The position numbers and the translations under genes were made by a program. The notes beneath the pieces were generated by a model, which was not told the origin of the DNA, searched no databases, and was given only the letters and a program-made list of their open reading frames with translations. A stretch of DNA of 64,000 nucleotides. Origin: a virus. The stretch is from the IMG/VR virus record IMGVR_UViG_3300047489_000453, positions 72,788-136,787 of that record; one strand, 5' to 3'. Below are positions 6,483 through 36,742 of this stretch, one piece after another; position 1 is the stretch's first letter; every line of letters begins with the position of its first letter.

Positions 6483-7196
6483 TTATTTGGGTGGTTGGTA
6501 GTTAGGGCTTAAAACGCCGCTTCTATATAAATTATACAGGTGGTACGGCAAAACAGGGGCGGCCGGCGCTGGGTGCATTCCAGCGCCGTGAGCTATAGCA
6601 TCGGCGGTGGTGTGACCGGCTAAGTGCCCCAAAGCTTTAGGAGCATGCTGAACTGCTAGATTTGAAGCTGTATGGCCTACGGTACTGGCAAGATGAGGCT
6701 GAGCTGCCTGTGCCGCAGGTGCGAGAATCTTGCCTCCATAATAACCTGCTGTGCGGCTAGCCCCTGATATTCCTAAAGTTGACGCCATCGTATTAAAAGC
6801 GTGCTGGTCTTGCTCGCTTTTTTGCCTAAATTTTTCGGCCTCTAGCCCTTTAGTAGGGAAGCTTTTTTGCTCCCCAAGCCTTGCAGTTTCTTTAAGCCTT
6901 TCCAGGTCTTGCTGCTTAGTAGTCAGGCCTTTATGGCTAAGATAGTCACTGGCTTGCTGCTGCATAGTAGGAGCTTGCCTGGACGCCCACAGCTCATTTA
7001 GCGTAGGGTTTTTAGATGGACTAAAGGAGCGATCTGGAGGAACAGGAAGCGGTCGACCTCTACCGTCTAAAGGTCTTATACGGTCAGGGCTATTATACGG
7101 CTGAGGGGATTGGCCGCCTGGCGCTACCGGTTGATTGCCTGCGGCAATTTTTCCCATAAGCTTGCCAAAGTTTTCCGCTCTTCGAATATTAATCAT
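6483..7196 (-). CDS. Hypothetical protein with shared N-terminal leader (probable virion protein)
   Basis: Begins MINIRRAENFGKLMGKIAA. Confidence 0.6.
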   Translation of the reverse strand: MINIRRAENFGKLMGKIAAGNQPVAPGGQSPQPYNSPDRIRPLDGRGRPLPVPPDRSFSPSKNPTLNELWASRQAPTMQQQASDYLSHKGLTTKQQDLERLKETARLGEQKSFPTKGLEAEKFRQKSEQDQHAFNTMASTLGISGASRTAGYYGGKILAPAAQAAQPHLASTVGHTASNLAVQHAPKALGHLAGHTTADAIAHGAGMHPAPAAPVLPYHLYNLYRSGVLSPNYQPPK

Positions 7197-19872: not shown

Positions 19873-19900
19873 AGGCCCTCCGTTGTAGTAGTGATTGATT

Positions 19901-19916
19901 GTGGAGACGTCTCCAC
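19901..19916. repeat. Dispersed 16-bp palindrome copy (16/16)
   Basis: GTGGAGACGTCTCCAC, intergenic. Confidence 0.9.
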
Positions 19917-19998
19917 TTTTGATTGTACATTATTATTGGCAGCACCTGATAGCTAAAAAAATCACCTCCAATCCCCTAAGGGATGGAGGTGGTTTTAT

Positions 19999-20337
19999 TT
20001 AGTTGGTATCGCCATCGCGATACCATGTACCGCCCGTGAAGGGCAGCTGGACAAGGGTTACCTTGTCAGCGCCCTCACCAGATGTGGCTACTCTGGTGAA
20101 TCCCACATTCGTGACTGTCCAACTTCGTGAAAACACGAAGGCTTTAAGTCCTATCTTCTGTGGGAGAGACGCTTCTTGGTAACCTGCACATTTGTCAGCG
20201 GACGGTAGTCCGCTGTACTGTGACAGGTCGTAAGCGGAAACGCCAACCGCTATCAACAGACATGTAAACGCCGCCAACAGAAGTTTGTTAAATATATTAA
20301 CAACCCCTGCTATAAAAGCCATTACAGTCTCCACCAT
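19999..20337 (-). CDS. Cassette gene: membrane-anchored hypothetical protein
   Basis: AAGGAG RBS before MVETV; N-terminal hydrophobic segment. Confidence 0.6.
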   Translation of the reverse strand: MVETVMAFIAGVVNIFNKLLLAAFTCLLIAVGVSAYDLSQYSGLPSADKCAGYQEASLPQKIGLKAFVFSRSWTVTNVGFTRVATSGEGADKVTLVQLPFTGGTWYRDGDTN

Positions 20338-20421
20338 GGCATTTTCTCCTTTCATAAAAGAGGGCATGCCTGCCCTATATGAGATTAAGAATCATTCACG
20401 TCTGAATGATTAACCTATCCC

Positions 20422-20480
20422 TTCATATATCTATGACACATTTGTGCCTTGAATTAAGGGCATGGGTGATAGCTAAAAAA
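20422..20480 (-). promoter_or_regulatory. Repeated cassette promoter motif, copy A (CTTAATTC-N11-GTGTCATA), preceded by TTTTTAGCTAT
   Basis: Same motif and spacing at 20913-20970 and 21370-21428; variant at 34448-34474. Confidence 0.7.
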
Positions 20481-20493
20481 ATAACCCAACCCA

Positions 20494-20631
20494 CTATTCA
20501 GTGGGCTGGGAGATTTTTATTAGTGCCAGGGAAGATATCCCTAGCATAACCAGACCAACCAGTCTTTCGGTTGGGCTGGAGTTAAATCCAAAGCTAAGCA
20601 TTAGACCCAGGGTAATCATGATTTCAAACAT
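20494..20631 (-). CDS. Cassette gene: 45-aa hydrophobic peptide
   Basis: AGGAGG RBS; MFEIMITLGLMLSFGFNSSPTERLVGLVMLGISSLALIKISQPTE. Confidence 0.5.
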   Translation of the reverse strand: MFEIMITLGLMLSFGFNSSPTERLVGLVMLGISSLALIKISQPTE

Positions 20632-20663
20632 GATTACCTCCTTTCTGTATGACCAAGTCCCCC

Positions 20664-20846
20664 TTAGGAGAAGGACTTGGCGGCCACAGCGTTAACTGGT
20701 AACGCTTTGTGGCCTGACGAGAAGATCTTTGACCTGGCAACAACGCCGGTCTTAGATTCTTCTCTAATGGACTCTTCTTTCGGATGAGCCCATACAATCC
20801 GTCTTGCTTTTGACAGAAGCAAGAAAAACTGTGTGCTTGACTGCAT
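20664..20846 (-). CDS. Cassette gene: small hypothetical protein
   Basis: AGGAGG RBS. Confidence 0.55.
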   Translation of the reverse strand: MQSSTQFFLLLSKARRIVWAHPKEESIREESKTGVVARSKIFSSGHKALPVNAVAAKSFS

Positions 20847-20912
20847 GTTACCTCCTATAACACTATCAAGCTGGGATCAGGGCCACATCGCATGTGGCAG
20901 ATAACCCGTCCC

Positions 20913-20970
20913 TTCATGTATATATGACACGGTAACGGGTTGAATTAAGTGGTCCAGTAATAGCTAAAAA
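20913..20970 (-). promoter_or_regulatory. Repeated cassette promoter motif, copy B
   Basis: Plus strand: ttcatgtatatatgacac-N11-gaattaag...atagctaaaaa. Confidence 0.7.
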
Positions 20971-20997
20971 AAAAGAACCCGGCCTTTCGGCCGGGTT
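20965..20997 (-). terminator. Intrinsic terminator
   Basis: Minus strand: AACCCGGCC-GAAA-GGCCGGGTT followed by a T run. Confidence 0.8.
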
Positions 20998-21003
20998 GAC
21001 TAC

Positions 21004-21288
21004 TTAGTAGTCTGACGCCGGTGAGGCGTCATTCTTTTTATTTTTGGGCTTTCGCTTCTTCTTCAGAAGCTTAGCCCGCCGGATTAGGCGAGCAGCCCGC
21101 TTGGCTTCCCGCTCGTTGTCGAGACGGGTAATGGCAAGCAATACCTCCTGTTGGAGGGTTGCTTGCGCATGCCTCTTCTTCATTAAGTCGTCAAGGCGAC
21201 GACTTAAGAAGATTCGGCTATGCAGCTCGGCCGCCAAAAGGCCAAGCCCGAAACAAAGGATACATCCAATGATGTACTCCATGTCCAT
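21004..21288 (-). CDS. Cassette gene: TM segment plus basic tail
   Basis: AGGAG RBS; N-terminal TM; K/R-rich C-terminus. Confidence 0.6.
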   Translation of the reverse strand: MDMEYIIGCILCFGLGLLAAELHSRIFLSRRLDDLMKKRHAQATLQQEVLLAITRLDNEREAKRAARLIRRAKLLKKKRKPKNKKNDASPASDY

Positions 21289-21369
21289 TGTTATACTCCT
21301 TTCAGTATAACGAGGTCAGCGTCTGCTCAAACGAGCAGACTGTAAGCCGCCTCTAATGGTTATGTCTCT

Positions 21370-21428
21370 TTCATGTATATATGACACGTTTATGGCCCGA
21401 ATTAAGGCCTGGTAAGTGATGCCTAAAA
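21370..21428 (-). promoter_or_regulatory. Repeated cassette promoter motif, copy C
   Basis: Plus strand: ttcatgtatatatgacac-N11-gaattaag. Confidence 0.7.
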
Positions 21429-21589
21429 ACATCTAGATCAACGCCAGCGACAGACTGCACTAGCGTTGATCGGTAATCCCCACGCATTATGGCCGTCGCC
21501 ATAATGCAATATGATGGTCGCTCAATATTCGCTCGGGGCTTGCGAATAGCCAACATATCATTTAATTATGACGCAATTATTGATTGGAT

Positions 21590-29418: not shown

Positions 29419-31324
29419 ATTGTTGCTGTAATACCATCCTTGCGCCCTGGGTCTGGGCCTGCTGCCTAATATTATTTATGGTCTGTTTAACCAAGCTATG
29501 TATCACTGGATCCTGTGATTTAAGCTTTGTCATCTCAGACTGTCTCTGCGACTCTGGCATAGCAAGCATTTGATTTGCTAGAGCGTTTGCTTTGTCCTGT
29601 AGATCCTGTGGCGTGATCTTTTGGTTTGGAGCAGTAGGTGTGGCAATAGACATACCTTGGGCTGCCATACCAGCTGCCCCTGACGGAGGGGCGCTTTGAG
29701 CTGGGCCTGGAGGAGGCTGAGCACCAGCAGGAGCCTGCCCTCCGCCTTGATCTCCTTGAGCTTGAGATTGCATAAACTGAGTTGTGACAGACGGGGCCAT
29801 CTGCTCCATAAGGGCAGAATCCTCCATATTCTTTTGCATTTTGGCCTGCTCTTCTTGAACAAACCTTTGCTCGTCAAGAATCTGTCTCTGCTCTTCTTTG
29901 AAGTCCATTCCAAGACTGCGAAGCACGCCTGTTTGGCTAACCTGCTGTGCCTGCATAAGCTGCATCTTGGACATAATGAGCTGTACATCATCAAGAATGG
30001 TAGGCTTGATAAGGCGGCAAGTAGCCGGCTCCCATCCAAAAGCGTCGCCGATGGATTTGGTAGTCTCTGTAAGAAATCCGTTAAGGCAGTGTATTAGGTA
30101 CTGCCAGCTAGACTCAAATAGCCTTATAGCTGGAAGAGCCGCCTGTAGGCTTAGAGTGCCTCTGTACAATTCTGCTGGCATACCAAAGCCGTTTAACAGC
30201 ATATTTATACCTGATTCAAGCAGATCGGTAGGAGCCAGGTTTCTGGCTTCTCCGCCAAGCATTTGGTATTGAACAGGTGTGCTTAAGAAGTGCCATGACG
30301 CTGGGTCTCTGCGTCTCTTTCTTAACATAGCCTGAACCTGACCTCGTAACCCGCCAAGATCCATATTCATCAAAGGATCTCCAGCCTCTGGCAGCGAGCT
30401 TGATTGGGGCGCAGGAGTAAGCACTCTGAACGGTATTACATAGTCTAGAGCTATGGCTTCGTTATATCTGTGAAGGACTTGGCAATACCAGGCATGTCTG
30501 AAATTAACTAGCGTTCTAGAAATACCCCATCCTCTTGACCTAACTCCTGACAGGGTAGGTTCGTACATATGGTGCACGGCTTTCCTATCAAATAGCAAAA
30601 AACCGTTAGCTGCTATGGCTTCTACTATTTCCCATGGAGCAGTCTCTAAAACTTGAGGATCTCCCCTTCTTACCTGCATCCTATAGTCTTCTGGTATTCT
30701 CCAGAGATAGTCTCTGTTATCCCTGACAGGGTCGTACCTTACTTCCATCTCAAAAGCCGGCCACCTTCTTACTCTTACTTCCTCTGGCTCATTAGTTCTT
30801 CTGTCTACTCTTTTCCAGTGGCCGCTGTATTTACACCTTGGGCAATTTGCGTGGAAATCGGGCATTTTCCATTTAAAAGAAAAAGCTGGGTTATTAATTA
30901 CCTGCTTTAATGGAACGTCTAGACTGCACTGTGGGCAGTAAAGATAGCGCCTAAATGGAATTACTAGGGTTGTGAAGCTGTTACCGTAGCATAGAAAATC
31001 AAGGCCTACCGAATGCAGTATGGTCCTTATGTCTAGAGTATCATTTAGAAATGATAGGTACTTCTGCTTCTCGTCGTCGCCTATATCTTTATCGTTCAGG
31101 CCTCTAATCTCAATGTCAGTGATAAAATAGCTAAGAACTCTACGAGCCGCTTCACGAATCATTGAGTTTGAGTGAAATATGAATTCGCAATACCTCAAAG
31201 CATCCCTGATATTCTCAGGCATTACTGTTGATGCATAATCCATGAACGGATCTGGAAAAGGCTCGTCGCCCCTACTATTTAAAGCCCAGCCCCGTCCTAG
31301 CGCGCCTTCTGAGTAATCTGACAT
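29405..31324 (-). CDS. Probable portal protein with a Zn-ribbon insert
   Basis: 639 aa; RGWGISR / RYNEAIA..Y.IPFRV / GMPAELY pattern, Q/P-rich C-terminus and CxxC pairs; assignment by resemblance only. Confidence 0.55.
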   Translation of the reverse strand: MSDYSEGALGRGWALNSRGDEPFPDPFMDYASTVMPENIRDALRYCEFIFHSNSMIREAARRVLSYFITDIEIRGLNDKDIGDDEKQKYLSFLNDTLDIRTILHSVGLDFLCYGNSFTTLVIPFRRYLYCPQCSLDVPLKQVINNPAFSFKWKMPDFHANCPRCKYSGHWKRVDRRTNEPEEVRVRRWPAFEMEVRYDPVRDNRDYLWRIPEDYRMQVRRGDPQVLETAPWEIVEAIAANGFLLFDRKAVHHMYEPTLSGVRSRGWGISRTLVNFRHAWYCQVLHRYNEAIALDYVIPFRVLTPAPQSSSLPEAGDPLMNMDLGGLRGQVQAMLRKRRRDPASWHFLSTPVQYQMLGGEARNLAPTDLLESGINMLLNGFGMPAELYRGTLSLQAALPAIRLFESSWQYLIHCLNGFLTETTKSIGDAFGWEPATCRLIKPTILDDVQLIMSKMQLMQAQQVSQTGVLRSLGMDFKEEQRQILDEQRFVQEEQAKMQKNMEDSALMEQMAPSVTTQFMQSQAQGDQGGGQAPAGAQPPPGPAQSAPPSGAAGMAAQGMSIATPTAPNQKITPQDLQDKANALANQMLAMPESQRQSEMTKLKSQDPVIHSLVKQTINNIRQQAQTQGARMVLQQQYGTM

Positions 31325-31369
31325 ACAACAAGCCTCCTAAGGCCCACTAGAAACAATTGTTTTGTAAGA

Positions 31370-32128
31370 TTAAAGAACACCATTGCCTGGTTTAAATTCC
31401 TTGGGTTTCTCATCAATATAATCATAACCGCTTTGTGGAGACGCCTCCACTTCTTTATCCTTATCAATATTGTCCTTAACTTCGTCTGGAAGATCCTTTT
31501 CCTGGCTTATTGGAACCAGGCAATGCTCGTATGGGCCGAACTTATGGTGTATTGCTGGCGGCTTGATAAGGAACAAGCTATCTATGCCGTCAACCATAAC
31601 GCCTATAAAAGCAGCAGACTCATTAGCCAGCTTGCTTGTAAACGGATAAAACTCTCCTGAGCCAGCATACCTTAAGTCAGTTGTTAAAACCAGATAACCA
31701 GGAACTACTGTTACCCCATGATATTTGTAGTTCAAAGTTGCCAATCCAGGCATATCAAAATAAACTCTTACAGATGGCGGAATTACGGCAGAGTCTGGTA
31801 AAGGTGCTGACGGGTGGACATGATTACCGCCGTCTAAGGTAGGAGACACTGTGCCAAGATTAGGAGGCGGAGACCCGGTAAGATCGCTTCTAAATTTCTT
31901 CAAGTTTTCAGCTATTACCTTTGATCTGTCAGTCTCGCTTAAAGACCTTAGCTCATTTACCTTGTCTTGTTTGACAGCGTACGGGTTGCCGCCTAGAGAC
32001 TTCATAGCATTAAGGTCTATAGTGAATGAGTCTAGTTCATGGGGGTCTACTACTATTTTTGTTACGTTTTTGTTTGAATCTATGTTTGATCCATTGGTTA
32101 TAGAAGCCAGGCCATTATGATCATTCAT
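31370..32128 (-). CDS. Hypothetical phage protein
   Basis: 252-aa ORF with AAGGA RBS. Confidence 0.65.
   Translation of the reverse strand: MNDHNGLASITNGSNIDSNKNVTKIVVDPHELDSFTIDLNAMKSLGGNPYAVKQDKVNELRSLSETDRSKVIAENLKKFRSDLTGSPPPNLGTVSPTLDGGNHVHPSAPLPDSAVIPPSVRVYFDMPGLATLNYKYHGVTVVPGYLVLTTDLRYAGSGEFYPFTSKLANESAAFIGVMVDGIDSLFLIKPPAIHHKFGPYEHCLVPISQEKDLPDEVKDNIDKDKEVEASPQSGYDYIDEKPKEFKPGNGVL
31435..31450. repeat. Dispersed 16-bp palindrome copy (15/16)
   Basis: GTGGAGACGCCTCCAC inside a CDS. Confidence 0.8.
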
Positions 32129-32204
32129 CTGTTATTCCTTTCGTTTACCTAACAATGTTAGTTTATAATCTAACTTTTTACTGTTTTACGTCTGAATAAG
32201 CAAC

Positions 32205-32369
32205 ATGATATCAATAGAAAGGATTATAAGTTTTCTTGAAGAAGTCCAATTATTTATTGAGACTAGCACTTGGTTCCATTATGTTTTTGCCTTGTCTGCC
32301 GTATATCTTACGATTAACGCCCCGCTTATTATAGACTACTTATTAGGCAGTGATCCTTTTGATGGCTAA
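32205..32369 (+). CDS. Small plus-strand membrane peptide (54 aa)
   Basis: MISIERIISFLEEVQLFIETSTWFHYVFALSAVYLTINAPLIIDYLLGSDPFDG; fills the gap and ends at a bidirectional terminator. Confidence 0.4.
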   Translation: MISIERIISFLEEVQLFIETSTWFHYVFALSAVYLTINAPLIIDYLLGSDPFDG

Positions 32370-32374
32370 TAGCT

Positions 32375-32409
32375 AAAAAAAATCACAGGAGCGAACTCCT
32401 GTGATTTTT
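32375..32409. terminator. Bidirectional intrinsic terminator followed on the minus strand by TTTTAGCTAT
   Basis: AAAAATCACAGGAG-CGAA-CTCCTGTGATTTTT. Confidence 0.8.
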
Positions 32410-32608
32410 GGTTAGTCTTCGTAGATCATCTCTACGACCTCTAACCGGTAGCAGTCGTTACCAAGAAAGTTTTCTAGCTTCTTGGTCAGGTCAAGCATTG
32501 ATTCTGCTTTGACCATGGTTCTATACTGCCCTCCGCCTGGGAGTACAGTCCTGGATGGGCAGGGGTAAAGCCACGCTATTACTGCGTAGCTTGTTTCATC
32601 TTTTTCTT

Positions 32609-32803
32609 CTATTGTACTATCTCCTTATAAAAGGGATAAACCTTAACAACATAAACTTCAACAGTGTTATTCGAAACCGTCTCTATCCTAACGTCGCCAA
32701 TGAAGTTGTTTTCATCGGCAAATTTTAACGCTTTATGGACTATCTGTCTTTCCAATACAGTATCCAAAGACCAGTTGTTACAAACTTCAGCCTGAAGAAT
32801 CAT
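32609..32803 (-). CDS. Hypothetical protein
   Basis: GGAGG RBS. Confidence 0.55.
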   Translation of the reverse strand: MILQAEVCNNWSLDTVLERQIVHKALKFADENNFIGDVRIETVSNNTVEVYVVKVYPFYKEIVQ

Positions 32804-32824
32804 AGTAACGTAACCTCCGTGTTA

Positions 32825-33440
32825 AAAAATGAACCGGGTCTATCAAAACGAATGATTTAGTTTGATAGACCCGGCCTGGTATGACGCCCGCCCAGACAGA
32901 ATAGTTACAAGACCGAAGTCTTTTATTCCCTGAGGCCGAACGGCGTTTTTGAGAAGATCGCTCAGACCTGGCTTTAGTTGACTAGCAGGGTTGAAAGCTT
33001 ATAGCAGTAACCCAAGGCCAACAACACCAGCTGTTAGGTATAGTAATCCGCCGACGCTAATCGACAAACCTCTATACTAGCCGAACACCTTCTCCCCGTT
33101 AGATAATGCTACTTCACGGTTTAGGCAGCATTCTGACTAGGCGCTCTGGAACTAAGGGTATATCGAAACGAGTCAGACTAGTTATTAAAGGCTTGCGCCC
33201 TTAAAGGTCAGAATGAGGTATTCGAAACGGCCTAAGCCTTATCTTAGCTCTGATCGACCTGGAAGTAGGTAGGCAAACTTATTACTGCGTTGGCGCTACT
33301 TGCGAGTCGCACGAAACCCGGTAAGAGAGGTATGTGTTTTATACTCTCCGCAGGGTAAGGCAGCAATGAGCCAGCTACGTACTCAGACTGGAGACGTCAG
33401 ATTCTCCGGCCACCGGAACTAATTGCTCAGCTCCGATACG
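32825..33440 (-). ncRNA. Candidate large (~600 nt) structured non-coding RNA
   Basis: No ORF of 60 aa or more; GCAA- and UUCG-capped hairpins with G-U pairs on the minus strand; long-range 9-bp helix; terminal 14-bp stem with a U tract. Confidence 0.65.
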
Positions 33441-33445
33441 AAGGA

Positions 33446-34135
33446 TTACTCCTCCGATTTTTTTATTACCTTGCTTTTCTTAGCAAGGTTATAGCCCATT
33501 CCCAGCTTATTAAGCTGGTGCTGAAAGCCGTATTGGGTTATGAAGTTTCCTTCATCACCCAGTAGGCCCTCAAAATCATAACACTGCGGGTTATCATCCC
33601 CCAGAACGAACCCCTCTGGGAGGAGTTCGTTGGGGATGAAAGTAAAATCCCCCATTTTATTTTTTATTAAGGTTTGGTAAAGAGCGTCCAGCTTTTTAGG
33701 CTCGTTAGAGCCCGCAAACCTGGACAACCCACCTATATCCAACACGTCTAAGTCTGGTACCTGACTTTCTAAAAAGCCGGTCACCAGTTTTGGTTGTCTC
33801 ATGTGAACGCATTCCTGCGTCGACAGCCTAGCCTCCGCTAGGCAAGCAGCTGCCGCCACATACGGGTTTTTTCCCAGCCCGTGAAGGGCTGGTATGAACG
33901 AGCAGACTGCCTGGCGCTTGCCATCGCGCCACTGCCATATGGTAACCGAACGGTTACCATATCTGGACAGACATATTACCTTTTCAATAGGTAATATTTT
34001 GTTGAGCAGCACTGTCTTTGGCTTCTCTGGAAGCCAACACATCCACGCTTTGTCGTCGAACTTCCCACCAAATATCCTTTTTACTCCTAGTTCGGCGACC
34101 TGATCCATAGAAACCTCAGACGCTACTACATCCAT
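33446..34135 (-). CDS. Hypothetical protein
   Basis: AGGAG RBS; 229 aa. Confidence 0.65.
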   Translation of the reverse strand: MDVVASEVSMDQVAELGVKRIFGGKFDDKAWMCWLPEKPKTVLLNKILPIEKVICLSRYGNRSVTIWQWRDGKRQAVCSFIPALHGLGKNPYVAAAACLAEARLSTQECVHMRQPKLVTGFLESQVPDLDVLDIGGLSRFAGSNEPKKLDALYQTLIKNKMGDFTFIPNELLPEGFVLGDDNPQCYDFEGLLGDEGNFITQYGFQHQLNKLGMGYNLAKKSKVIKKSEE

Positions 34136-34154
34136 GACTGACTCCTTTCATGGG

Positions 34155-34406
34155 CTACCTTCTGGGCAGCCATTTAACGCTGTCAAAAGGGACAGCTACC
34201 TTGGTGCGCCTTGCACCTCTATCGCCACCTTTAAGGGTGCAGATAAGTCTGTTCCCCTTAGAGTGGCGGCGAGTAACTTCTATGTACTCGCCATCTATTA
34301 GGACATGCGGCTTCAAGGGAAGCCTCTTATTCCCCTTGTTTGAGCCTTTACTAAAAGCCCAAACAAGGAACCCTATGATGGATATGGCAAATAATGCTTC
34401 CATTGG
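34155..34406 (-). CDS. Small TM-anchored protein downstream of promoter motif copy D
   Basis: AAGGA before MEALF; hydrophobic N-terminus. Confidence 0.55.
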   Translation of the reverse strand, partial: PMEALFAISIIGFLVWAFSKGSNKGNKRLPLKPHVLIDGEYIEVTRRHSKGNRLICTLKGGDRGARRTKVAVPFDSVKWLPRR

Positions 34407-34447
34407 GTGTCCTTTCTTGTCGCCAATAACACATGGCAACATAATAT

Positions 34448-34474
34448 TATGACGCGTTTTTGCCCTGAATTTAG
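34448..34474 (-). promoter_or_regulatory. Promoter motif copy D (CTAAATTC-N11-GCGTCATA)
   Basis: Same spacing as the cassette promoters. Confidence 0.55.
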
Positions 34475-34476
34475 GG

Positions 34477-34824
34477 CTAGGAATTGAACTCTTCGTCGTC
34501 GTCGATCACATCTGGATCATCAAAAAGAAAGCCGTCTACGTCTATCTCGACGGAGTCATCGACATGGGTAAGATCGGCTTCGATAATGTTGTTACTTGAT
34601 ATAAGCTTTCTTGGAGGAAGTGAAATGTGCCATCTCTCGCCTTTGACTATAAAGCAAGATACTCTTTTCTTGACTAGTTTTCTAAGCTCAACTACAAGGT
34701 CGTCCTTGGCAGTAAACTCCTTGCACTCGGGCTTTCCAAAATCAGGCACCACTATCAGATAGAACTTGTCAGGGTTGCTATCTTCAGCATGGCCTGTTTC
34801 AGGTTCGCTCTGGCCATTGTGCAT
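34477..34824 (-). CDS. Hypothetical protein
   Basis: Acidic C-terminus; in operon. Confidence 0.6.
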   Translation of the reverse strand: MHNGQSEPETGHAEDSNPDKFYLIVVPDFGKPECKEFTAKDDLVVELRKLVKKRVSCFIVKGERWHISLPPRKLISSNNIIEADLTHVDDSVEIDVDGFLFDDPDVIDDDEEFNS

Positions 34825-35098
34825 CTGGTCCGCCTTCATAAATAATCGTCAAGGCAATTAATACTGCTCGGCTAGTCATATCCTTGTCGAGCCACCGGCT
34901 GCTAATTCCTGGTGGAGACGTAGACACAATTGTAACCCTGTTAGTAGCAACCCAATAGTTAATAGACTCGTCCAGAGGCTCAGTTACTTTAACCAGTCTC
35001 CAGTCATCAGGCGCTGCTCCTGCTGGTCGCTCGTATATTCTTTCTTCCACGAAAGTTTTAGTCTTTAAAAGCCTGGACTCATTGGTCGAGTGGTTCAT
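34799..35098 (-). CDS. Hypothetical protein
   Basis: In operon. Confidence 0.55.
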   Translation of the reverse strand: MNHSTNESRLLKTKTFVEERIYERPAGAAPDDWRLVKVTEPLDESINYWVATNRVTIVSTSPPGISSRWLDKDMTSRAVLIALTIIYEGGPDAQWPERT

Positions 35099-35744
35099 TA
35101 TTAATAGCCCTCATTAACCTTATAGCTTCCCTATCTGCCGGTTTTTTAACTAGCTGTGGTACAGGGTAACCTGTGCATATCCAGCTGCAGGCAGATCCTT
35201 TTAGATCCCAAACATAAGGTTCTATGAACTTTCCTGGCATCTTCGGGTCAGGTATCTTAACCTTTACAGCCTCACAAAGAAACATGTAATTTTTGGCCCT
35301 ATTTAGAATAGTCATCTTTCCAATAGCTTTTTCTATATGTGGCCAGTGCTCAATTGAAGTAAAAGCCAACATCCTGTCATGGCCGCCGCTGTTGTCAATA
35401 AAGTCAAAGTTACTGAATAACTTTCGGTTAAAAGTAAGAATGTTTACAACATCGTCTTTGCCACACCAGGCCTGATATTCGGCAAGGGGGTCAAAGTCTA
35501 ATCCTCCCTTTGAGAACAGGGACGTATGGTTAAAGAATACGAAGTCCGAGGACAAGTCAGATAGCGAGCTAGACACATCAGCCCTTTTAAGAGGGGGCAT
35601 CTTTTTGAGCTCTTCGGCTGACGGGGTATCTATTCTGCCGTCAACAATGCCTTCCTCTACCGGAACTTTTCCTATTAGCTCATACTCCGGTATGGACTTC
35701 ATGTAGTCTTCTACAACTTCTTGTGATAATCTCTTGCCGCTCAT
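35079..35744 (-). CDS. Hypothetical protein
   Basis: 221-aa ORF. Confidence 0.65.
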   Translation of the reverse strand: MSGKRLSQEVVEDYMKSIPEYELIGKVPVEEGIVDGRIDTPSAEELKKMPPLKRADVSSSLSDLSSDFVFFNHTSLFSKGGLDFDPLAEYQAWCGKDDVVNILTFNRKLFSNFDFIDNSGGHDRMLAFTSIEHWPHIEKAIGKMTILNRAKNYMFLCEAVKVKIPDPKMPGKFIEPYVWDLKGSACSWICTGYPVPQLVKKPADREAIRLMRAINNEPLDQ

Positions 35745-35746
35745 TA

Positions 35747-36742
35747 TTATTTCCTAGGTATGGTTAGCACTATATTTGAGTGTTTATCCCTTACAAAAAC
35801 ACTGGTCTCGTCTGAGAAGCATTCGTAATAGTTAGACTTGTCAACCATTATTGATAAAGCCTCAGAGTCTTTTACTTTATCGTCAGAGTCGGCTTCCTGG
35901 AAAGCTAGAAAGACTACGCCTCTGGCGCACGTACTTAGTGTGCAATTGTTAAAGCACATATGGGCCTTTTTAAGGCTGGTATAGTTCTTTTCAGAATAAC
36001 CGTACCCGGCGCTCAGCTCGTCTACAACCATGACTTCAAGAGTTTTAAGTTTGCTGCCCTCGGCCATTAAATCTTTAATACCGCCACTACTGCGGCATTT
36101 TAATCTACCCTGCCAGTCTTCAGGTTTGACTCTTTTATAGTTTTTATTGAGCTTTTTGTTAAAGGTTTTAAGGCTTAGATGCAGGCAGCAATTTTCATTA
36201 ATTTCACACCTATCTAGGACATGAGCTATTACTGCGTCTAGGTCTTCGCGTTTACCGAGGAAAATATTAGGCACGTTGGAATTGATAATGTCGTCATTAT
36301 CAAACCCAGCGTCAAACCTTTGCATATACTTTTCCCTGTTGTACACAGGTTTAAGAGACGGCATAGCTTTAGTGGACGCTGCCTGCTTGATCTTAACTAC
36401 ATTGTCAGAAAGGTACTTGGAGGCCTTTCCGCATGCCTTTGAGATTCTAAACGATTCTATAGGCGTAGCCTTGGCTATATGGATTACATCTTTTTTCAGC
36501 TTTTCAACGGACGCCTCGTCAGCGCCCATGGCTACTGCTTTTGACTTAATATCGTCAAGCGCCGCTTTTTCCAGCATTCTAGACAGCCTTAAGGCGTCCA
36601 TAAAATACAGGCTGCTGGTGTTGTCTCCTGTCTCAAGTAAAAGACTTTTGAAAGAGTCCTTTGTAGCCTCAGTTATTTTCCTGTTACTTACTCTCATTGC
36701 CGTTATCCTTTCTTTTATCAAATCCCATTCCATATTGCTCAA
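35747..36742 (-). CDS. Hypothetical protein (possibly a degenerate P-loop fold)
   Basis: 331 aa; VMVVDE resembles Walker B but there is no Walker A. Confidence 0.55.
   Translation of the reverse strand: MSNMEWDLIKERITAMRVSNRKITEATKDSFKSLLLETGDNTSSLYFMDALRLSRMLEKAALDDIKSKAVAMGADEASVEKLKKDVIHIAKATPIESFRISKACGKASKYLSDNVVKIKQAASTKAMPSLKPVYNREKYMQRFDAGFDNDDIINSNVPNIFLGKREDLDAVIAHVLDRCEINENCCLHLSLKTFNKKLNKNYKRVKPEDWQGRLKCRSSGGIKDLMAEGSKLKTLEVMVVDELSAGYGYSEKNYTSLKKAHMCFNNCTLSTCARGVVFLAFQEADSDDKVKDSEALSIMVDKSNYYECFSDETSVFVRDKHSNIVLTIPRK

Follow-up and report, generated by a model that had tools for sequence, protein, structure and literature searches.

A candidate structured noncoding RNA of about 620 nucleotides in a group of large freshwater phages

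The phage and prophage RNAs ROOL and GOLLD are usually encoded near tRNA islands, a setting that is typical rather than strictly defining, and they work as homo-oligomeric, RNA-only cages held together by kissing loops and A-minor contacts, GOLLD having a universally conserved 3' region. Other RNAs that invite comparison are the pRNA of phi29, a phage-encoded structured RNA that serves as an oligomeric scaffold, and the bacterial small RNAs derived from 3' untranslated regions (UTRs), which are usually 50–150 nucleotides (nt) long and act by short seed pairing. The locus described here lies within 64,000 nt (hereafter, the window) of IMGVR_UViG_3300047489_000453, a 136.8-kilobase (kb) IMG/VR virus record rated 67% complete, and positions 32823–33442 on the minus strand of the window are read as a stable, highly structured noncoding RNA (ncRNA) of ~620 nt, a member of a small family that evolves fast and is restricted to one group of large freshwater phages, a reading to which a probability of roughly 60% is assigned. 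ROOL- and GOLLD-like phage RNAs are few and their functions are unknown, and each new family is an independent case for asking what their role is; the present one is useful for its abundant freshwater lineage, its presence in RNA libraries, one constant small protein as a testable partner and an odd, hairpin-saturated neighbouring gene.

As described in the available part of one study (10.1101/2024.12.08.627333), ROOL (Rumen-Originating, Ornate, Large) is phage-encoded, several hundred nt long, heavily paired and abundant, with no known partner or function, and GOLLD is a phage or prophage RNA from lake and marine samples that has one conserved and one poorly conserved part and whose expression rises during lysis. 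Going by that same part, the ncRNA of the window resembles ROOL in being phage-encoded, several hundred nt long, heavily paired and present in RNA libraries, and resembles GOLLD in being conserved in part (a core and the 3' end) and variable elsewhere. Unlike ROOL, it has no Rfam match and no tRNA within the 64 kb, and it is far less conserved, with one helix and a terminator common to its relatives; unlike GOLLD, given there as more than 800 nt, it is ~620 nt long (310–500 nt in relatives), has no Rfam match (the GOLLD 3' region included), has no tRNA neighbour and occurs in one phage group only. In the available part of a screen of IMG/VR (PMC10690425), the motifs reported are only 29–151 nt long, and the contig numbers of the relatives described below do not occur in the supplement files of that screen that were searched.

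When the window was scanned with cmscan against all 4227 families of Rfam 15, no match reached the gathering score, and permissive filters over 32300–33900 at E≤10 returned three weak matches, none of them within 32825–33445 and none to ROOL, while ARAGORN found no tRNA or tmRNA gene in the window. The ROOL test was the Rfam covariance model, and the profile used in the study cited above (10.1101/2024.12.08.627333) likewise came from Rfam. An initial annotation, made from the sequence alone, had proposed a large RNA that was new, that lacked the hallmarks of tmRNA, RNase P, group I/II introns and hammerheads and that could be assigned to neither ROOL nor GOLLD; on all of these points the scans agree with it, novelty standing even at E≤10 within the region. 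The ncRNA is thus not ROOL or GOLLD, from which it is set apart by the Rfam models and by the lack of tRNA neighbours. We give hardly any weight to the idea that it comes from a known class, whether ROOL, GOLLD, the self-splicing introns or some other Rfam family, and has diverged so far that the models no longer reach it: it does resemble ROOL and GOLLD, as described in the available part of 10.1101/2024.12.08.627333, in its size, in coming from a phage, in its lake habitat and in being present in RNA libraries, but no model matched and no tRNA was found in the 64 kb, and since the ORFs that flank it are separate genes in two relatives (L005 and L006), the ncRNA is not an intron. By analogy, the RNA would stand closest to ROOL and GOLLD when judged by size, origin, habitat and abundance, with the family itself new and narrow.

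The ncRNA region (32804–33445) is bounded by the stop of an upstream open reading frame (ORF) of 229 amino acids (aa; 33446–34135) and the ATG (32803) of a downstream 64-aa ORF (32609–32803), and all of the genes around it lie on the minus strand, as do the features given below unless stated otherwise. The region had been described as free of ORFs, and the longest ORFs in 32804–33445 are indeed only 32–41 aa. As annotated, it closes with a perfect stem of 14 base pairs (bp; 32834–32847 with 32861–32874), followed by UCA and a U6 tract (32823–32828); the whole forms an intrinsic terminator (32823–32876) with a stem of 14–16 bp that contains G+C, a 13-nt loop and the U tract directly after the stem on the transcribed strand. 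A consensus terminator scan missed it because the loop exceeds the 8-nt limit of the scan. The ~620 nt are counted from the end of the U tract to the point at which contigs from RNA libraries stop.

On the minus strand, the region folds with a minimum free energy (MFE) of −214.8 kcal/mol (z −5.82; 0 of 20 shuffles as good), compared with z −1.86 on the plus strand, folding better than in shuffled sequence being seen on the minus strand only. A repeat of the test with 15 shuffles gave z −3.83 for the sense strand, and 12 other windows of 621 nt taken from that strand gave values between +0.41 and −3.04; the upstream gene gave −12.5. Taken by itself, the folding energy makes the region stand out without setting it apart from all others, which is suggestive and not decisive. 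The helices that had been listed are all present, including a 5' hairpin of 11 bp with three G-U pairs and a GCAA tetraloop (33412–33437), an 8-bp hairpin with a GCAA tetraloop (33185–33204) and a 5-bp hairpin with a UUCG loop (32909–32922), each found both in the sequence and in the MFE structure, as well as the helix AAUGCUGC/GUAGCAUU, which is part of the MFE structure. Several of the long-range pairs named with them compete with other pairings: the 9-bp pair of 33129–33137 with 33207–33215 is 100% complementary and absent from the MFE structure, and a 12-nt pair (33109–33120 with 33257–33268; 83% complementary) competes with the AAUGCUGC hairpin. A long-range closing helix of ~18 bp with bulges (33380–33399 with 32882–32903) is a prediction only, made by both the MFE and the maximum expected accuracy structures. 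The repeat that had been likened to a T-loop, CGUUUCGA-(A/UA)-UACC (33157–33229), does occur twice, its DNA form CGTTTCGA-(A/TA)-TACC lying at 33217–33229 and 33157–33170 (0.01 copies expected; 0 of 100 shuffles reach two), but it is internal to the window RNA: of 115 loci only four have it, each a copy of the window region, and it has no counterpart in the relatives.

Related loci were collected by means of a well-conserved 639-aa protein encoded downstream, which yielded 19 from IMG/VR and 80 from metagenomes. The gene order around the ncRNA is kept in the closer relatives, and an ORF-free stretch that ends in a terminator and is structured on the sense strand stands at the same place in five distinct sequences from four phage lineages (310–500 nt): ~500 nt in L005, ~326 nt in L006, of which L026 is a variant with 86% identity, and ~350 nt in L004, to which L112 is a further contig that was found by a DNA pattern; L024 is identical to the window. 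Equivalent terminators close the stretch in L005, L006, L004 and L112, preceded by CCAGGCC in the window and in L004/L112 and by CCAGGGCC in its place in L005. Sense z-scores in the five relatives (−4.7, −3.8, −5.5, −9.0 and −7.2) are in every case more negative than the antisense ones (in the same order, −0.1, −0.9, −1.6, −5.1 and −4.2), as in the window. In other relatives (L011–L013, L015/L016, L007–L010 and L014), the neighbouring genes are kept and the ncRNA stretch and the small ORF are both missing.

The stretch diverges far too quickly for simple similarity searches. The ncRNA gave no blastn match against 50,697 phage records and, at word size 7, found only the identical copy L024 among the related loci, and when four intergenic stretches were compared by tblastx, that of the window had no similarity to any collected locus. 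Among viral contigs, the 229-aa protein alone found no relative, and alignments of the 229-aa and of the 64-aa protein each found the L005 and L006 contigs only; among genome contigs, the 64-aa alignment gave 55 pattern matches, none confirmed. The DNA pattern of the core described below had three matches among viral contigs, one of them new (L112), and five among genome contigs that were put down to chance, three having no flanking pairs and two (L116 and L120) lying inside ORFs of the opposite strand. Closer relatives of the flanking proteins do exist (78–80% identity in P0007/P0008, 97% in P0013 and 80% in P0014). Given the fast divergence and the single conserved helix, alignment-based screens would miss this ncRNA family.

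What the relatives have in common is a core made of an outer stem of 6–11 bp, a bulged G on the 3' strand, an inner GUKC/GWGC pairing and, in most copies, GGCUA. In the window, the 5' strand (33078–33094) consists of P1a GAGAAGGU (33087–33094), P1b GUUC (33083–33086) and GGCUA (33078–33082), and the 3' strand (32951–32964) of U-GAGC (32960–32964), the bulged G (32959) and P1a' AUCUUCUC (32951–32958). The sequence of the outer stem is specific to each lineage: GAGAAGGU/AUCUUCUC in the window, UCGGGU/ACCCGA in L004, GCCCCU/GGGGGC in L006 and AGAAGAGCGUU/GGCGUUCUUCU in L005, which has a second copy and shows GGUCU in place of GGCUA in its first. Two hairpins lie within the helix in L004, in L006 and in the window, where they are much enlarged (hairpin A, 33038–33077, with 17 bp and five G-U pairs, is much longer than in relatives; hairpin B, 32969–33030, is a predicted branched domain), and the second copy of L005 has one long hairpin there. 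In these sequences, the core helix covaries among syntenic relatives.

Counts in real and shuffled sequence point the same way. The two short motifs of the core occur together at 281 places in 686 kb, and the seven with six of six flanking pairs are all these intergenic RNAs, representing five distinct sequences in which the pair types differ at the same positions; among the other 274 places none has six pairs and eight have five. A scan with a descriptor of the core gave nine matches in real sequence and 0–3 in shuffled sequence. In an alignment of L004, L112, L006 and L026, 92.4% of the cells assigned to pairs are paired, compared with 77.6% in shuffles (0 of 500 reach the value), both sides have changed in 9 of 21 pairs (3 of 500 shuffles reach this), and sliding the partner by 1–3 columns leaves 27–46% of cells paired. 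A 12-mer (GGUGUUCGGCUA) common to the window and L004 was matched in 1 of 200 shuffles, and those common to the window and L005 (UGUCUGGGCGGG) and to L004 and L006 in 0 of 200; a 10-mer common to the window and L006 is not significant (39 of 200). The proposed family can be defined by an outer helix of at least 6 bp, GUKC, GG(CUA), KWGC, a bulged G and an outer strand complementary to the first, all in the orientation of the genes, between a gene of the 229-aa family and the small ORF and with a terminator at the end; this combination, which was derived from the same sequences, is found in the window (33078–33094 with 32951–32964), L004, L112, L006, L026 and twice in L005.

Comparison of close pairs gives a view of change over shorter distances. 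L004 and L112 diverge strongly over the first ~100 columns of their alignment, and over the remaining ~250 columns the only differences are an A-U pair replaced by G-C (columns 99/139), a single loop base and two tips of core hairpins. L006 and L026 are identical but for a 47-nt insertion, one hairpin tip and one further base, and 62 positions differ between the 229-aa genes that flank them. This pattern of change is what would be expected of an RNA selected for structure. The insertion itself (L026:2426–2472, relative to L006:6474–6475) contains a perfect 7-bp hairpin with a CUAG loop and could represent either an expansion segment or the insertion of a small palindrome.

The region was also found in RNA libraries from lakes and rivers. 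In a search for the words of 32600–33700, 14 DNA runs from lake, river and other freshwater metagenomes contained 88–100% of them (the DNA matches come from at least 10 freshwater studies, and some may be the source sample), and six metatranscriptome runs contained 32–50%. Contigs from four of the six metatranscriptome runs were mapped onto 30500–36000, and the coverage that had been suggested as a check on the RNA was present in all four, as eight contig pieces spanning 32727–33530, seven of them without a difference from the window and the eighth with one; no contig of these runs fell on 30500–32726 or 33531–36000, an absence of cover that is not counted as evidence. Two contigs from different studies, X15 (33118–33441; depth 27) and X17 (33248–33442), stop at the same point with no loose ends, 4–5 nt past the UAA of the 229-aa ORF and in the 3' arm of a hairpin over the end of that ORF (GGAGGA-GUAA-UCCUUC; 33440–33455), whose GUAA loop holds the stop codon (33446–33448) and which is a candidate 5' end or processing site. 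The coincident ends are a weak hint of an RNA end.

The proposal of a candidate new large phage ncRNA is thus borne out in its strand-specific structure, the lack of an Rfam family, the contigs in RNA libraries and a covarying core, and it falls short in several respects that weigh against our reading of the locus. The greater part of the ~600 nt cannot be aligned with the relatives, with which the RNA has in common a core of ~70–140 nt and the terminator, and the repeat z-score of −3.83 lies only slightly past the most negative coding control (−3.04). P1 as derived by comparison is absent from the MFE structure of the window and has an ensemble probability of 0.18; when it is enforced, the energy is −213.1 rather than −214.8 kcal/mol, and the cost of 1.7 kcal/mol together with the low probability implies that P1 competes with other pairings there. 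The core was spotted by eye and the descriptor came from the same sequences, so the argument is partly circular; the alignment of four relatives was made by a model, fitted to the structure and effectively represents two lineages (MAFFT misaligned the five cores), and the covariation comes from only 4–5 independent lineages, too few for a statistical test such as R-scape. A covariance model built from L004, L112, L006 and L026 (R2) missed the core of the window, with its 113-nt interior, matched the terminator at E 2.5 and reached the two copies of L005 only at E 0.94 and 2.3, and a model of L004 alone (R1) found only L004 with default filters and, with filters off, L026 (E 0.57), L006 (E 1.7) and, in the window copy, the terminator; neither model lends the core of the window independent support. 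RNA libraries can hold DNA, and contigs, as opposed to reads, give presence and not a certain strand, level or exact ends. One RNA contig enters the upstream ORF (33313–33530) and another passes the terminator into the 64-aa ORF (32727–32877), so that the ncRNA is not cleanly separate from its neighbours. Further, no promoter was found in front of it (a sigma-70 promoter was sought within 200 nt), and its function is pure inference.

The border-crossing contigs bear directly on whether the stretch could be a cis-acting UTR, be it a long one at the 3' end of the 229-aa gene or a terminator/antiterminator leader gating the 64-aa ORF. We consider this unlikely, even though there is no promoter-like site directly upstream, contigs run over both borders, several helices are mutually exclusive, as a switch would need, and the ncRNA and the small ORF co-occur. 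In L004, L112 and L076, a promoter-like element and ~125 nt separate the ncRNA terminator from the small ORF, from which it follows that the ncRNA is not the leader of that ORF there, and a leader role is unlikely to be the conserved one on the evidence of these sequences; the length of 310–620 nt is also far above that of known attenuators, and two contigs end at 33441/33442. As in 3'-UTR-derived small RNAs, the ncRNA lies between a stop codon and the terminator of an operon, no promoter of its own was found and its possible 5' end is 4–5 nt past the stop codon, but the family is much longer, at 310–620 nt, and appears selected for extensive internal structure.

A second set of alternatives arises from the upstream 229-aa gene (33446–34135), which is saturated with perfect hairpins on both strands. 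It stands out far more strongly than the ncRNA, with z −10.4 in sense and −12.2 in antisense (orthologues in L005 and L006, −8.2 and −10.3), and carries 12 perfect hairpins with stems of at least 6 bp, compared with 1.2 in codon-order shuffles; the window's gene shares this excess with all seven of the relatives' genes tested at this position, those of phages without the ncRNA included. That the gene is coding follows from close pairs, in which the differences concentrate at third codon positions (93 of 136, 52 of 62 and 126 of 230). Several of the hairpins keep their protein position in distant orthologues despite a different sequence, for example over a conserved RYGN...W, and in close relatives individual hairpins are often broken. 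The same palindrome-filling process could in principle have produced the neighbouring stretch as a non-functional, hairpin-rich spacer, seen in RNA because structured RNA decays slowly, and the z of about −10 on both strands of the gene with its 12 hairpins, the very fast divergence of the ncRNA region and its length range of 310 to 620 nt, as well as its absence from several relatives, would all fit. This appears quite improbable given that the hairpins of the gene are local, perfect and strand-symmetric and the helices of the ncRNA are long-range, rich in G-U pairs and strand-specific in six of six sequences, and the two are treated here as separate phenomena side by side; in addition, the core helix covaries and, once the diverged first ~100 columns are set aside, the changes that separate close relatives are all compensatory or in loops or tips.

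The wider setting is that of a replication-type module upstream, with a ThyX thymidylate synthase, a polymerase-type exonuclease and a RuvC-like resolvase, and of the 64-aa ORF, a 252-aa ORF and the 639-aa protein downstream. The latter is without a known family, its PDB sequence search gave no match of note, and phrog_64 offers a faint 'portal' hint (E 0.079; 2 of 10 members). A DNA-level element such as a replication origin or a packaging or recombination site, with RNA as an incidental product, might be expected at such a position and beside a gene full of strand-symmetric palindromes, but it is highly improbable here, as the structure is strand-specific, the cumulative GC skew shows no turn, a terminator stands at the end and the element is absent from close relatives that retain the surrounding genes. 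Like phi29 pRNA, the ncRNA is phage-encoded and structured, and it lies ~1.5 kb upstream of the 639-aa protein with its faint and unproven portal hint; it differs in being ~3.5 times longer than pRNA and in having no match in Rfam.

The favoured reading of a structured RNA, which may act in trans, draws attention to the 64-aa protein, whose ORF begins ~20 nt past the terminator and has GGAGG 10 nt 5' of its ATG. The ncRNA and the small ORF stand together in six of six distinct RNA-bearing sequences, and in four lineages without the ncRNA the small ORF was not found by tblastn (the gap in L011 was also read directly). The family comprises 10 clusters (P0001–P0010; 59–86 aa), all unnamed, and within the collected loci it occurs only beside the ncRNA; the small protein of L004/L112 has 65 aa and the same hydrophobic pattern at only 14–16% identity. 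An AlphaFold2 model of the 64-aa protein has a beta-alpha-beta-beta order (mean predicted local distance difference test, pLDDT, 85), with a best Foldseek E of 0.45, no PDB match and, in VIA, a best Z of 4.6 (Argonaute N-terminal region) that is below noise level; a feature search of the ESM Atlas, in which the sequence itself is present, gave no match. Speculatively, this protein is the best candidate for a partner of the ncRNA.

Under the favoured reading, the ncRNA would form the final portion of the transcript of the upstream, replication-side operon, as suggested by the lack of a promoter and by the one contig that bridges gene and ncRNA. Its 5' end would arise by a cut within the stop-codon hairpin of the 229-aa gene near 33442, or by a start there, and its 3' end would be set by the strong intrinsic terminator at 32823, with the 5' hairpin and the terminator hairpin protecting both ends and allowing the RNA to accumulate. 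The conserved helix, with its covarying outer pairs, bulged G and GUKC/GWGC, would close a junction with one or two variable hairpins, and the RNA may, more speculatively, act in trans as a folded scaffold, either by binding the 64-aa protein or by forming an assembly of RNA alone, as ROOL and GOLLD do. A bolder version, which we regard as tentative and rather doubtful, is that of the first representative of a new class of large phage RNA, produced abundantly by a freshwater phage lineage that is widespread, evolving as fast as counter-defence genes and forming a folded particle (a ribonucleoprotein with the 64-aa protein, or RNA only), in a locus that as a whole could expose the host to structured nucleic acid, acting for instance as a decoy for RNases or for defences that sense RNA or hairpins.

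Promoter-like elements were found at several places in these phages. In the window, a cassette of small genes (19900–21450) has for each gene a terminator hairpin running into TTTTTAGCTAT(C/T), with a related site at 32368–32379, and three of the cassette genes carry a promoter-like CTTAATTC-N11-12-GTCATA. This pattern has three sites in the window (0.01 expected), all at 20.4–21.4 kb and none near the ncRNA, and TTTTTAGCTATC with at most one mismatch has six (0.92 expected). In L004, L112 and L076, the element directly follows the ncRNA terminator, and the sites of the element or cassette in relatives are L004:6591–6650, L076:90–170 and 500–520, L112:590–650 (minus strand) and L011:6975–6990. 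This element is probably a promoter type of the phage's own.

The remaining observations concern details of the features above. L005 carries its core helix in tandem (6498–6564 and 6590–6667), the first copy having its 3' strand in two overlapping versions (GCGGGUU repeated), and it is with this first copy that the 3' strand of the predicted closing helix (32882–32903) has its 12-mer UGUCUGGGCGGG in common. Counterparts of the stop-codon hairpin are present in L006 (6379–6406), with a 12-bp stem and a GUAA loop, and in L005 (6217–6232), as CCUU-GAUC-AAGG. Orthologues of the 229-aa gene lie at L005:5499–6224, L006:5665–6396, L004:5554–6249, L011:6248–6934, L010:6136–6987 and L007:6028–6984, and the model of the protein (pLDDT 83) has a fold without known match (best Foldseek E 0.054). 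Between the 64-aa and 252-aa genes, an 11–14 bp hairpin flanked by A5 and T5 (32378–32409, on either strand) is a potential terminator for either direction of transcription, with TTTTTAGCTATT following it on the minus strand. A third island of perfect hairpins lies beyond the window in the genome of this phage (G000 C1, 65800–67550) and reaches 4–7 per 700 nt, compared with 0–2 in most windows.

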